A DNA stretch of 45,913 nt from Escherichia coli (GTDB taxonomy: Bacteria; Pseudomonadota; Gammaproteobacteria; Enterobacterales; Enterobacteriaceae), in NCBI RefSeq assembly GCF_003334785.1, contig NZ_QOWV01000023.1; one strand, written 5' to 3'. The translations under genes and the position numbers were made by a program. This document shows, piece by piece, positions 5,552 to 45,913 of the stretch. Below the pieces are notes generated by a model. The model had not been told where the DNA came from and did no database searches. It saw only the letters and a program-made list of their open reading frames with translations. Position 1 is the stretch's first letter. Each line of letters opens with the position of its first letter.

Positions 5552-5660
5552 TGCCGGATGCGGCGTGAACGCCTTATCCAGCCTACAAATTTGTGCAAAT
5601 TCAATAAATTGCAGGAAATACGTAGGCCTGATAAGACGCGTCAAGCGTCGCATCAGGCAT
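5552..5660. repeat. REP/BIME repetitive extragenic palindromes between convergent phr and dtpD
   Basis: GCCGGATGCGGCGTGAACGCCTTATCCAGCCTACA and GTAGGCCTGATAAGACGCGTCAAGCGTCGCATCAGGCA are canonical E. coli REP units. Confidence 0.75.
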
Positions 5661-23005: not shown

Positions 23006-23126
23006 CCGTAGGCCTGATAAGACGCGCAAGCGTCGCATCAGGCAACCAGTGCCGGATGCGGCGTGAACGCCTTATCCGGCCTACAAGTCATTACCCGTAG
23101 GCCTGATAAGCGCAGCGCATCAGGCG
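23006..23126. repeat. REP/BIME cluster (three REP units) between sdhB and sucA
   Basis: CCGTAGGCCTGATAAGACGCGCAAGCGTCGCATCAGGCA, GCCGGATGCGGCGTGAACGCCTTATCCGGCCTACA and CCGTAGGCCTGATAAGCGCAGCGCATCAGGCG. Confidence 0.75.
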
Positions 23127-27338: not shown

Positions 27339-27360
27339 TAGTTTAAGTTTCACCTGCACT

Positions 27361-27625
27361 GTAGACCGGATAAGGCATTATCGCCTTCTCCGGCAATTGA
27401 AGCCTGATGCGACGCTGACGCGTCTTATCAGGCCTACGGGACCACCAATGTAGGTCGGATAAGGCGCTAGCGCCGCATCCGACAAGCGATGCCTGATGTG
27501 ACGGTTAACGTGTCTTATCAGGCCTACGGGGACCACCAATGTAGGTCGGATAAGGCGCAAGCGCCGCATCCGACAAGCGATGCCTGATGTGACGTTTAAC
27601 GTGTCTTATCAGGCCTACGGGTGAC
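27361..27625. repeat. Tandem BIME array of REP pairs: ~90-bp unit, ~2.4 copies
   Basis: Units at 27402-27490, 27491-27581 and partial 27582-27621, each GCCTGATG(C/T)GACG...GTCTTATCAGGCCTACGGG...CCACCAATGTAGGTCGGATAAGGCGC.AGCGCCGCATCCGACAAGCGAT. Confidence 0.8.
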
Positions 27626-27703
27626 CGACAATGCCCGGAAGCGATACGAAATATTCGGTCTACGGTTTAAAAGATAACGATTACTGAAGGATGGACAGAA
27701 CAC

Positions 27704-28870
27704 ATGAACTTACATGAATATCAGGCAAAACAACTTTTTGCCCGCTATGGCTTACCAGCACCGGTGGGTTATGCCTGTACTACTCCGCGCGAAGCAGAAG
27801 AAGCCGCTTCAAAAATCGGTGCCGGTCCGTGGGTAGTGAAATGTCAGGTTCACGCTGGTGGCCGCGGTAAAGCGGGCGGTGTGAAAGTTGTAAACAGCAA
27901 AGAAGACATCCGTGCTTTTGCAGAAAACTGGCTGGGCAAGCGTCTGGTAACGTATCAAACAGATGCCAATGGCCAACCGGTTAACCAGATTCTGGTTGAA
28001 GCAGCGACCGATATCGCTAAAGAGCTGTATCTCGGTGCCGTTGTTGACCGTAGTTCCCGTCGTGTGGTCTTTATGGCCTCCACCGAAGGCGGCGTGGAAA
28101 TCGAAAAAGTGGCGGAAGAAACTCCGCACCTGATCCATAAAGTTGCGCTTGATCCGCTGACTGGCCCGATGCCGTATCAGGGACGCGAGCTGGCGTTCAA
28201 ACTGGGTCTGGAAGGTAAACTGGTTCAGCAGTTCACCAAAATCTTCATGGGCCTGGCGACCATTTTCCTGGAGCGCGACCTGGCGTTGATCGAAATCAAC
28301 CCGCTGGTCATCACCAAACAGGGCGATCTGATTTGCCTCGACGGCAAACTGGGCGCTGACGGCAACGCACTGTTCCGCCAGCCTGATCTGCGCGAAATGC
28401 GTGACCAGTCGCAGGAAGATCCGCGTGAAGCACAGGCTGCACAGTGGGAACTGAACTACGTTGCGCTGGACGGTAACATCGGTTGTATGGTTAACGGCGC
28501 AGGTCTGGCGATGGGTACGATGGACATCGTTAAACTGCACGGCGGCGAACCGGCTAACTTCCTTGACGTTGGCGGCGGCGCAACCAAAGAACGTGTAACC
28601 GAAGCGTTCAAAATCATCCTCTCTGACGACAAAGTGAAAGCCGTTCTGGTTAACATCTTCGGCGGTATCGTTCGTTGCGACCTGATCGCTGACGGTATCA
28701 TCGGCGCGGTAGCAGAAGTGGGTGTTAACGTACCGGTCGTGGTACGTCTGGAAGGTAACAACGCCGAACTCGGCGCGAAGAAACTGGCTGACAGCGGCCT
28801 GAATATTATTGCAGCAAAAGGTCTGACGGATGCAGCTCAGCAGGTTGTTGCCGCAGTGGAGGGGAAATAA
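27704..28870 (+). CDS. sucC: Succinyl-CoA synthetase beta subunit
   Basis: 388-aa ORF ([18 protein letters not shown]...), stop overlaps sucD start (TAATG). Confidence 0.97.
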
Positions 28871-29739
28871 TGTCCATTTTAATCGATAAAAACACCAAGG
28901 TTATCTGCCAGGGCTTTACCGGTAGCCAGGGGACTTTCCACTCAGAACAGGCCATTGCATACGGCACTAAAATGGTTGGCGGCGTAACCCCAGGTAAAGG
29001 CGGCACCACCCACCTCGGCCTGCCGGTGTTCAACACCGTGCGTGAAGCCGTTGCTGCCACTGGCGCTACCGCTTCTGTTATCTACGTACCAGCACCGTTC
29101 TGCAAAGACTCCATTCTGGAAGCCATCGACGCAGGCATCAAACTGATTATCACCATCACTGAAGGCATCCCGACGCTGGATATGCTGACCGTGAAAGTGA
29201 AGCTGGATGAAGCAGGCGTTCGTATGATCGGCCCGAACTGCCCAGGCGTTATCACTCCGGGTGAATGCAAAATCGGTATCCAGCCTGGTCACATTCACAA
29301 ACCGGGTAAAGTGGGTATCGTTTCCCGTTCCGGTACACTGACCTATGAAGCGGTTAAACAGACCACGGATTACGGTTTCGGTCAGTCGACCTGTGTCGGT
29401 ATCGGCGGTGACCCGATCCCGGGCTCTAACTTTATCGACATTCTCGAAATGTTCGAAAAAGATCCGCAGACCGAAGCGATCGTGATGATCGGTGAGATCG
29501 GCGGTAGCGCTGAAGAAGAAGCAGCTGCGTACATCAAAGAGCACGTTACCAAGCCAGTTGTGGGTTACATCGCTGGTGTGACTGCGCCGAAAGGCAAACG
29601 TATGGGCCACGCGGGTGCCATCATTGCCGGTGGGAAAGGGACTGCGGATGAGAAATTCGCTGCTCTGGAAGCCGCAGGCGTGAAAACCGTTCGCAGCCTG
29701 GCGGATATCGGTGAAGCACTGAAAACTGTTCTGAAATAA
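28870..29739 (+). CDS. sucD: Succinyl-CoA synthetase alpha subunit
   Basis: 289-aa ORF ([28 protein letters not shown]...). Confidence 0.97.
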
Positions 29740-29838
29740 ATATCTGTAATAAGAAATAGCCCTCGCCGCTTCCCTCTACAGGAATGGCGAAGGGCTGTCG
29801 GTTTCGACATGGTTGGCCATCGTATGATGGCCTTTTTT
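29740..29838 (+). ncRNA. sdhX: 3'-UTR-derived small RNA of the sdh-suc operon (SdhX/RybD-like); boundaries approximate
   Basis: ~100 nt between sucD stop and terminator containing stem GCCCTCGCC/GGCGAAGGGC and a terminal hairpin; identity from remembered literature on a 3'-UTR sRNA downstream of sucD. Confidence 0.5.
29815..29838 (+). terminator. Intrinsic terminator of the sdh-suc operon
   Basis: Hairpin GGCCATC/GATGGCC (29815-29821 with 29826-29832) followed by TTTTTT (29833-29838); sits directly against the convergent mngR stop (29843). Confidence 0.7.
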
Positions 29839-29842
29839 GTGC

Positions 29843-30565
29843 TTATCGCGATGATTTTCGCTGCGCTATCAGGGTAAATTTATAGTCATCGGTATTAAAA
29901 GCGTTGCGGCTATATTCAAACACCCGACCATCAACTAAATATCCACGCGATACTTTTTCAAGAATCGGCTTTGTCTGGCTGATATTAAGCAGACGGCTCA
30001 TCTCTTCGGTTGGCATCAGAGGAATGATTTCCTGTTCGCTACGATCGATAACCATTTTCTTCACTTCTTCGATAAAGTGATATTTCGAATTTTCCATGAC
30101 CTGCCAGGTGAGATCCGGGAACAACGCAAGCGGCATCCAGGTTTCTTCCAGCGCCATTGGCTTTTGCTTGCGATAGCGCACGCGCTTCACATGCCACACA
30201 CGATCCTGCGGGGTGATTTGTAGCTGTTGCTGAAGAAAATCGTCAGCCGGAATCACTTCGAATATCAGAACTTCACTGTGTGTATCGACGTGACGGTCCG
30301 ACAGTTTTTCATCAAAACTGGTTAACTGAAAAATATCGTAATTGACCCGCTCTTCTTTGACGTAAGTCCCGCTGCCCTGAATGCTTTCGAGGATCTGCTG
30401 CTCGACTAGCTGGCGCAAAGCCTGACGCACCGTAACCCGGCTGACGCCAAACTCTGTTTGTAGCGCTGATTCAGTGGGTAACGCATCGCCAGGTTTAAGC
30501 TCGCCACGCGCAATTTGTTCACGAATGCGATCGGCAATCTGCCGGTATAAGGGCTTGTGTCCCAT
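29843..30565 (-). CDS. mngR: GntR/HutC-family transcriptional repressor of mannosyl-D-glycerate utilisation
   Basis: 240-aa ORF; N-terminal winged-HTH (...EFGVSRVTVRQALRQL...) plus UTRA-type C-terminus; formerly farR. Confidence 0.9.
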   Translation of the reverse strand: MGHKPLYRQIADRIREQIARGELKPGDALPTESALQTEFGVSRVTVRQALRQLVEQQILESIQGSGTYVKEERVNYDIFQLTSFDEKLSDRHVDTHSEVLIFEVIPADDFLQQQLQITPQDRVWHVKRVRYRKQKPMALEETWMPLALFPDLTWQVMENSKYHFIEEVKKMVIDRSEQEIIPLMPTEEMSRLLNISQTKPILEKVSRGYLVDGRVFEYSRNAFNTDDYKFTLIAQRKSSR

Positions 30566-43732: not shown

Positions 43733-44278
<546 letters not shown>

Positions 44279-44287
44279 GAGAATTGC

Positions 44288-45079
44288 ATGAGCAGTAACT
44301 TCAGACATCAACTATTGAGTCTGTCGTTACTGGTTGGTATAGCGGCCCCCTGGGCCGCTTTTGCTCAGGCACCAATCAGTAGTGTCGGCTCAGGCTCGGT
44401 CGAAGACCGCGTCACTCAACTTGAGCGTATTTCTAATGCTCACAGCCAGCTTTTAACCCAACTCCAGCAACAACTTTCTGATAATCAATCCGATATTGAT
44501 TCCCTGCGTGGTCAGATTCAGGAAAATCAGTATCAACTGAATCAGGTCGTGGAGCGGCAAAAGCAGATCCTGTTGCAGATCGACAGCCTCAGCAGCGGTG
44601 GTGCAGCGGCGCAATCAACCAGCGGCGATCAAAGCGGTGCGGCGGCATCAACGACGCCGACAGCTGATGCTGGTACTGCGAATGCTGGCGCGCCGGTGAA
44701 AAGCGGTAATGCAAACACGGATTACAATGCAGCTATTGCGCTGGTGCAGGATAAATCCCGCCAGGATGACGCAATGGTGGCATTTCAGAATTTCATCAAA
44801 AATTACCCTGATTCAACTTACCTGCCAAACGCCAATTATTGGCTGGGTCAGTTAAACTACAACAAGGGTAAAAAAGATGATGCGGCGTACTATTTTGCTT
44901 CGGTAGTGAAAAACTATCCGAAGTCACCAAAGGCTGCAGATGCGATGTTTAAAGTCGGCGTCATCATGCAGGACAAAGGTGACACCGCAAAAGCGAAAGC
45001 CGTATACCAGCAGGTTATCAGTAAATACCCTGGTACTGATGGCGCTAAACAGGCACAAAAACGTCTGAACGCGATGTAA
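44288..45079 (+). CDS. cpoB: Cell-division coordinator CpoB (TPR-repeat periplasmic protein)
   Basis: 263-aa ORF with signal peptide, coiled-coil and C-terminal TPR-like repeats; formerly ybgF. Confidence 0.93.
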   Translation: MSSNFRHQLLSLSLLVGIAAPWAAFAQAPISSVGSGSVEDRVTQLERISNAHSQLLTQLQQQLSDNQSDIDSLRGQIQENQYQLNQVVERQKQILLQIDSLSSGGAAAQSTSGDQSGAAASTTPTADAGTANAGAPVKSGNANTDYNAAIALVQDKSRQDDAMVAFQNFIKNYPDSTYLPNANYWLGQLNYNKGKKDDAAYYFASVVKNYPKSPKAADAMFKVGVIMQDKGDTAKAKAVYQQVISKYPGTDGAKQAQKRLNAM

Positions 45080-45243: not shown

Positions 45244-45319
45244 GGGTCGTTAGCTCAGTTGGTAGAGCAGTTGACTTTTAATCAATTGGTCGCAGGTTCG
45301 AATCCTGCACGACCCACCA
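45244..45319 (+). tRNA. lysT: tRNA-Lys (anticodon UUU)
   Basis: 76-nt GGGTCGTTAGCTCAGTTGGTAGAGCAGTTGACTTTTAATCAATTGGTCGCAGGTTCGAATCCTGCACGACCCACCA, CCA encoded. Confidence 0.95.
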
Positions 45320-45454
45320 ATCGCTAAGGTGGAAGCGGTAGTAAAACGTGAAGGATAACGTTGCATGAGCAACGGCCCGAAGGGCGAGACGAAGTCGAGT
45401 CATCCTGCACGACCCACCACTAACATAGTTAGTTGTAGTATCCAGCGTAGTATC

Positions 45455-45530
45455 GGGTGATTAGCTCAGCTGGGAGAGCACCTCCCTTACAAGGAGGGGG
45501 TCGGCGGTTCGATCCCGTCATCACCCACCA
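45455..45530 (+). tRNA. valT: tRNA-Val (anticodon UAC)
   Basis: 76-nt GGGTGATTAGCTCAGCTGGGAGAGCACCTCCCTTACAAGGAGGGGGTCGGCGGTTCGATCCCGTCATCACCCACCA. Confidence 0.95.
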
Positions 45531-45533
45531 CTC

Positions 45534-45609
45534 GGGTCGTTAGCTCAGTTGGTAGAGCAGTTGACTTTTAATCAATTGGTCGCAGGTTCGAATCCTGCAC
45601 GACCCACCA
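45534..45609 (+). tRNA. lysW: tRNA-Lys (anticodon UUU)
   Basis: Identical 76-nt tRNA-Lys sequence, 3 nt after valT. Confidence 0.95.
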
Positions 45610-45758
45610 GTTTTAACATCGAAGACAGATGTTAAGCGTGTAGGATAACGTTGCGTCAGCAACGGCCCGTAGGGCGAGCGAAGCGAGTCATCCTGCACGA
45701 CCCACCACTAATGACGGTGGGTTCGGTGGAAGTAGTTTGTAGTATCCAGCGCAGTATC

Positions 45759-45834
45759 GGGTGATTAGCTCAGCTGGGAGAGCACCTCCCTTACAAGGAG
45801 GGGGTCGGCGGTTCGATCCCGTCATCACCCACCA
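45759..45834 (+). tRNA. valZ: tRNA-Val (anticodon UAC)
   Basis: Identical 76-nt tRNA-Val sequence. Confidence 0.95.
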
Positions 45835-45837
45835 CTC

Positions 45838-45913
45838 GGGTCGTTAGCTCAGTTGGTAGAGCAGTTGACTTTTAATCAATTGGTCGCAGGTTCGAATCCT
45901 GCACGACCCACCA
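45838..45913 (+). tRNA. lysY: tRNA-Lys (anticodon UUU); ends exactly at the window edge
   Basis: Identical 76-nt tRNA-Lys sequence ending in CCA at 45911-45913. Confidence 0.9.

Follow-up and report, generated by a model that had tools for sequence, protein, structure and literature searches.

The sdhCDAB-sucABCD mRNA, a transcript of ~10 kb, is the source of the small RNA SdhX, which lacks a separate promoter and is set free from the mRNA by RNase E (Miyakoshi et al. 2019, PMC6393394). SdhX was detected on Northern blots in Salmonella at levels that were dependent on RNase E, and in the rne3071 mutant, which is temperature-sensitive, there was clearly less of both species at the non-permissive temperature (PMC6393394). 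The rne3071 and rneR169K mutants of Salmonella provide the experimental basis for the conclusion that the 5' ends of SdhX are made by RNase E, and RNase E was found to generate the short form of 38 nt by cutting the long form at a UUU site in a 5'-end-dependent manner (PMC6393394). In E. coli, forms of ~101 and ~38 nt have been described (reviewed in PMC9438474). Hfq co-immunoprecipitation was the origin of RybD, as this RNA was formerly called, and Hfq CLIP has been used in Salmonella. In E. coli RIL-seq, many transcripts, ackA among them, were found to copurify with Hfq as hybrids with SdhX (PMC6393394), and SdhX-ackA and SdhX-katG hybrids were also obtained by Hfq CLASH in the same species.

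The regulatory consequences of these interactions have been established in some detail. The start codon of ackA and the UCG codon next to it are paired by the seed of SdhX, and AckA synthesis is repressed while that of Pta is not (PMC6393394). E. coli SdhX additionally represses fdoG via the pair G62/C-13 and katG via an E. coli-specific upstream stretch, for which the C34G change was tested, and regulation of ackA, fdoG, and katG was confirmed with compensatory mutations in each case (PMC6393394). The key paper for E. coli is that of De Mets et al. 2019 (PNAS), and the E. coli phenotypes are given here second-hand, as related in PMC6393394 and PMC9438474. RNase E processing, Hfq binding, regulation as tested by compensatory mutations, and the mapped 3' end are accordingly taken from the literature.

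The window, by which is meant the entire stretch of 45,913 nucleotides of E. coli DNA that was analysed, contains this system at the 3' end of its sdhCDAB-sucABCD operon. The stretch at 29740-29840 on the plus strand is identical at 101 of 101 positions to 765050-765150 of NC_000913.3, with the same start and the same end, and in that curated record of E. coli K-12 MG1655 the ncRNA gene b4764, "small regulatory RNA SdhX," is annotated right after sucD. It is virtually certain that 29740-29840 is the gene for SdhX (RybD), the Hfq-dependent, 3'-UTR-derived small RNA of E. coli; this RNA is already known, and there is nothing new in the element. The parent of SdhX is the mRNA of sucD, the last gene of the operon, and the first base of sdhX directly follows the sucD stop codon (TAA, 29737-29739) on the same strand. 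The coordinates of the features discussed below are collected in Table 1. A first-pass annotation of the sequence had proposed an "SdhX-like" processed 3'-UTR small RNA at this position, a reading that can now be sharpened to SdhX itself on the grounds of the 101-nt identity, the seed, and the target nucleotides. It had also named the failure to find a stable RNA of ~100 nt as the result that would speak against this reading, a point that the Northern blots in Salmonella and the ~101- and ~38-nt forms of E. coli had already settled in the literature.

Table 1. Positions in the window of sdhX, its parts, its neighbours, and other RNA elements
Feature	Position	Strand	Basis
sucD CDS (succinyl-CoA synthetase alpha)	28870..29739	+	ORF list; RefSeq annotation of identical MG1655 sequence
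sdhX (b4764, formerly rybD), full-length ~101-nt SdhX	29740..29840	+	identity with MG1655 gene
Stem-loop 1 (SdhX nt 19-57), genus-variable 5' module	29758..29796	+	MFE and centroid fold
E. coli-specific katG-pairing stretch GCUUCCCUCUACAG (SdhX nt 29-42), in 5' arm and loop of stem-loop 1	29768..29781	+	pairing
Small weak hairpin GUCG-GUUU-CGAC (SdhX nt 58-69)	29797..29808	+	folds
GGUUU, RN/WUU (RNase E-type) motif	29800..29804	+	motif scan
Conserved seed UUCGACAUGGU (SdhX nt 64-74)	29803..29813	+	seed named in PMC6393394
Rho-independent terminator of operon and SdhX	29815..29838	+	terminator scan, stem covariation, Term-seq
mngR (GntR-family repressor), convergent neighbour, outside the small RNA	29843..30565	-	ORF list; annotation
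Known Rfam elements (CpoB/ybgF thermometer; tRNA cluster and RtT; ES036)	44179-44317, 45244-45910, 5587-5629		Rfam

The sdhX gene is easily overlooked in sequence records. A search of the region against Rfam 15 yielded no relevant match at the gathering score or at E <= 10, as the library evidently has no SdhX model; this is a gap in the library, not an absence of the RNA. Chance matches to isrD (terminator-like, 17 bits), snoR9, and asX2 were dismissed as noise. RefSeq genomes annotated with PGAP have no feature under the sdhX match, and the gene is annotated only in the curated MG1655 record. With both PGAP and Rfam blank at this position, the region looks unannotated in most records, and the missing annotation should not be taken for novelty. 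An Rfam family for SdhX could be built from the 19-sequence alignment described below. An open reading frame for 81 amino acids on the minus strand (29565-29810), opposite sucD and sdhX, was not taken further, being regarded as an antisense frame in a conserved gene.

The structure of SdhX was predicted by folding. The RNA of 104 nt corresponding to 29737-29840 has a minimum free energy of -41.3 kcal/mol, compared with -25.7 +/- 3.5 kcal/mol for 200 dinucleotide shuffles (z = -4.43), none of which was as good. From 5' to 3', the fold comprises an imperfect stem-loop (nt 19-57), a weak hairpin of 4 bp (nt 58-69), and the terminator hairpin. In the outer stem of stem-loop 1, GCCCTCGCC at 29759-29767 pairs with GGCGAAGGGC at 29786-29795, leaving one bulged A, and an apical UUCC/GGAA helix is found above it. 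The terminator consists of GGCCATC and GATGGCC on either side of GTAT (29815-29832), which form a stem of 7 bp with 5 GC pairs, followed by TTTTTT at 29833-29838 as a U6 tail. A terminator scan of 29300-30300 called this site and no other, although such a pattern alone is not significant, shuffled sequences yielding 0.9 per kb. Published Term-seq tables place a plus-strand 3' end at MG1655 position 765148. This corresponds to the final U of the tract (window position 29838), and its scores, 19842 and 34704, greatly exceed those of neighbouring entries. The U tail of the terminator is the expected Hfq-binding 3' end of SdhX. The imperfect stem, the GGCCATC/GATGGCC terminator, and the TTTTTT run described in the first-pass annotation were therefore all found in place, and its remark that the terminator abuts the convergent mngR stop holds as well, with the stop codon (29845-29843) lying 4 nt past the U tract. 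The assays of Hfq association and of 3' ends that it recommended are covered by published RIL-seq, CLASH, and Term-seq work in E. coli.

Processing of the RNA can be followed to a predicted cleavage site. When 29701-29840 was scanned for the RNase E-type motif RN/WUU, a single site was found, G61 G62/U63 U64 U65. Cleavage in E. coli is thus predicted between G62 and U63, and would give a short form of 37-38 nt ending in the U tract. The size of this predicted product agrees with the published short form, and the location of the cut with the UUU site of Salmonella.

The seed UUCGACAUGGU sits between hairpins, immediately 5' of the terminator hairpin, and its complementarity to known targets was computed from the window sequence and the target regions of MG1655. 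SdhX nt 64-73 (UUCGACAUGG) and ackA positions -2 to +8 (CCAUGUCGAG) form a helix of 10 bp (dG -14.4) that covers the AUG and the UCG codon of ackA. The pairing between the seed window and the ackA translation initiation region reached -16.8 kcal/mol, an energy attained by 17 of 2000 shuffles; this energy-based control was used in place of one based on 10-bp helices with G-U pairs allowed, which was uninformative (665/2000 shuffles reach such a helix). An RNAduplex calculation with whole SdhX against 120 nt of ackA returned an unrealistically long duplex and was discarded. SdhX nt 62-71 form 10 Watson-Crick pairs with fdoG positions -22 to -13, G62 being opposite C-13, and nt 29-42, which include C34, form with katG positions -20 to -7 a helix of 14 bp over the Shine-Dalgarno sequence (dG -25.1). 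The computed pairings with ackA, fdoG, and katG involve exactly the published nucleotides. Seed prediction against ackA-type targets, which had been suggested beforehand, thus led to the helix at the ackA start, and the statement that an RNA from this TCA-cycle operon is linked to acetate metabolism was correct, the link being ackA (PMC6393394, PMC9438474).

Conservation was observed at two levels. Within the species, every one of 5426 complete E. coli genomes has the 101 nt of sdhX, with an identity of at least 99% in 4086 records and of 95-99% in 1334. One strain, E. coli FDAARGOS_944 (NZ_CP065613.1; positions 601-800 of locus L088), carries an IS1 inserted after nt 73 of sdhX, between seed and terminator, and represents a natural disruption of SdhX. 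Across species, 80 sucD loci, taken from one genome per species, were compared. The exact 9-mer TCGACATGG followed by a terminator was found no more than 65 nt from the sucD stop in 13 of them, all from Enterobacteriaceae (Escherichia albertii, Mangrovibacter, Phytobacter, Pseudescherichia, Pluralibacter, Superficieibacter, Kluyvera, Citrobacter, and several Enterobacter), and the 9-mer with one or two changes is seen in an unclassified MAG, in Serratia plymuthica, in two Rahnella, and in Hafnia. In the same set, TCGACATGG is absent downstream of sucD in Pantoea, Erwinia, Proteus, Photorhabdus, Xenorhabdus, and Yersinia, and all loci from outside the Enterobacterales are without it and have a plain terminator only.

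An alignment of 19 Enterobacterales sequences showed which parts of the RNA are held constant. Every one of the 19 has the seed core GACAT unchanged, the seed positions on either side of it are kept in at least 90%, and the GGCC foot of the terminator shows little or no variation, while the part 5' of the seed cannot be aligned. In 18 distinct orthologous sequences the terminator stem is 100% paired, with 3 of 6 pairs changing on both sides; its covariation score of 0.365 compares with 0.202 +/- 0.030 for shuffles, none of 500 reaching it, and slid registers of the stem pair in at most 56% of cells. Stem-loop 1, on the other hand, is specific to the genus, others having different hairpins at that position. 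The sdhX gene of E. albertii (positions 2071-2171 of locus L003) differs from that of E. coli by C28U and G47A, which fall on both sides of one predicted pair, and this compensatory change supports stem-loop 1.

The same hairpins might also be explained if the region were only the intrinsic terminator and a stabilizing 3' UTR of the sdh-suc mRNA, with an extra hairpin that plays no role in trans. The terminator does serve the operon, as seen from the scan and from Term-seq, and removal of the entire 3' UTR in Salmonella lowered the level of SucD protein, so that there is a cis role too (PMC6393394). However, the 11-nt unpaired stretch 5' of the terminator has been kept across genera while all that lies 5' of it diverges, this conserved stretch is complementary to the ackA start region, and Hfq-associated hybrids of SdhX with its targets have been recovered. 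Because the published compensatory mutations show regulation in trans, and so refute this explanation as an exclusive one (PMC6393394), it is regarded as highly improbable. Even less credence, close to none, is given to independent transcription of sdhX from its own promoter within the 3' end of sucD, in the manner of MicL. Levels of SdhX and SucD in Salmonella are not always correlated (PMC6393394), as might be expected of separate transcription, but no transcription start site or conserved promoter is reported in the literature, and both SdhX species were lost in the temperature-sensitive rne3071 RNase E mutant (PMC6393394). Furthermore, a scan for sigma-70-like promoters in 29300-30300, which is a weak test, found none, and this result is consistent with the production of SdhX by processing rather than by separate transcription.

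Alternatively, the hairpins might mainly serve the convergent gene, the antisense of stem-loop 1 and the following UAUUUCUUAUU terminating mngR, whose 3' UTR would then be antisense to SdhX. The fold of the minus strand is strong (-47.7 kcal/mol, z = -5.25), and stem-loop 1 read in antisense gives a strong GC hairpin with the U-rich run UAUUUCUUAUU behind it, whereas the antisense of the SdhX terminator is without a U tract. The distribution of the two genes argues otherwise. The mngR flank beside sdhX is matched in 3883 of 5426 complete E. coli genomes and is absent in about 28%, where sdhX is retained; in strains without it, such as O157:H7 and MSHS 133, divergence sets in immediately past the U tract, and stem-loop 1 together with the rest of sdhX is kept both in these and in E. 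albertii, which lacks mngR there. In addition, the terminator scan called no site on the minus strand, and no 3' end on the minus strand of this region is listed in the Term-seq tables; they contain no entry naming sucD, and the entries labelled mngR are all on the plus strand. A search of the literature for a link between mngR and SdhX or for a bidirectional terminator found none and returned unrelated papers, mostly on human SDHx genes. A primary function in mngR expression is considered very unlikely, and termination of mngR is an additional role of the hairpins at most. The preferred reading remains that of SdhX, processed from the operon mRNA and acting in trans.

Two additional layers of SdhX control may be envisioned from the folds, in which RNase E would activate the RNA by unmasking a seed covered by an anti-seed, and a complementary mngR 3' UTR would titrate or destabilize it. 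As a pair they are considered improbable. For the former, in a small hairpin UGUCG...CGACA at 29796-29809 (nt 57-70), seed nt 66-70 are covered by an upstream arm that mimics the ackA site, and the predicted RNase E site falls in the loop of this hairpin. In the folds, the unpaired probability of the seed was 0.56 in the 101-nt form versus 0.93 in the 38-nt form, and that of nt 66-69 was 0.04-0.18 versus 0.85-0.94. A similar (A)UGUC...GACA(U) arrangement is found in Pluralibacter, Kluyvera, and Enterobacter, though not in all genera. What weakens the idea of seed masking is that, in Salmonella, a mutant blocked at the processing site still regulates ackA when overexpressed (PMC6393394). As for the latter, in strains with mngR, an mngR transcript ending at the antisense of stem-loop 1 would be complementary to most of SdhX, including its seed (29745-29845 on the minus strand), and the Term-seq 3'-end data give no support to this idea.

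Several other elements of the window deserve mention. In the table of Rho-terminated regions of Adams et al. 2021, a plus-strand region antisense to mngR is listed at MG1655 position 765604, equivalent to window position ~30294 (Rho score 2.86, p 2.3e-5), which suggests that some transcription continues past the SdhX terminator until Rho halts it within mngR. The spacer between sucB and sucC (27339-27703) measures 365 nt, compared with 274 nt in MG1655, because it contains one extra REP/BIME unit of 91 nt, and the window as a whole therefore differs from MG1655. Rfam matches to naRNA4 (CssrE) were found at 27453-27524 and 27544-27615, and a further one lies between sdhB and sucA (23011-23081, minus strand). 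The Rfam matches elsewhere in the window are to the CpoB/ybgF intercistronic RNA thermometer, with 142 bits, to five clustered tRNA genes, accompanied by two RtT elements, and to the sRNA ES036 (CssrF).

Taken with the published work, these observations fit a mechanism in which transcription of sdhCDAB-sucABCD runs through sucD and ends at the intrinsic terminator at 29815-29838. RNase E cuts the 3' end of the mRNA to yield SdhX of ~101 nt, starting just past the sucD stop, and a second cut, predicted within GG/UUU, would yield the form of ~38 nt. Both forms present the seed UUCGACAUGGU single-stranded ahead of the terminator hairpin and the Hfq-binding U tail. By pairing across the start codon of ackA, which encodes acetate kinase, the seed blocks its translation and leaves pta unaffected, so that acetate and acetyl-phosphate metabolism is tied to expression of the TCA-cycle operon. 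The E. coli seed, as extended by G62, also represses fdoG, and an anti-Shine-Dalgarno stretch in the E. coli-specific stem-loop 1 represses katG. SdhX is a textbook case of an operon mRNA with a regulator at its 3' end, one by which the synthesis of acetate kinase and, hence, acetyl-phosphate levels are coupled to the expression of TCA-cycle enzymes. The locus also serves as a positive control, as a reading of the raw sequence recovered a real small RNA at its exact curated coordinates.

Among known systems, the element matches SdhX of E. coli K-12 MG1655 (b4764) in all 101 nt, in position, in strand, and in neighbours, and there is no difference within the element. SdhX1/SdhX2 of Salmonella enterica Typhimurium occupy the same locus and have the same seed UUCGACAUGGU and terminator architecture, and, like E. 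coli SdhX, have ackA as their main target and give rise to a long and a 38-nt form through RNase E (PMC6393394). The differences lie in the long form and in the secondary targets. Long SdhX of Salmonella is 87 nt in length and starts upstream of the stop codon, whereas that of E. coli starts after it; Salmonella SdhX does not regulate fdoG, because it has a U where E. coli has G62; it is without the katG-pairing stretch of E. coli SdhX; and its targets include fumB and yfbV, neither of which is repressed by SdhX of E. coli (PMC6393394). More distantly, CpxQ, NarS, MalH, SroC, and GlnZ share the biogenesis of SdhX, being promoterless RNAs that RNase E cuts from a parental mRNA whose intrinsic terminator provides the Hfq-binding 3' end, and they likewise cross-regulate a functionally related operon (PMC9438474). 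Their parental genes, seeds, and targets are different, and SdhX stands apart from them in its location at the end of an operon transcript of ~10 kb and in the exceptionally small size of its short form, 38 nt.
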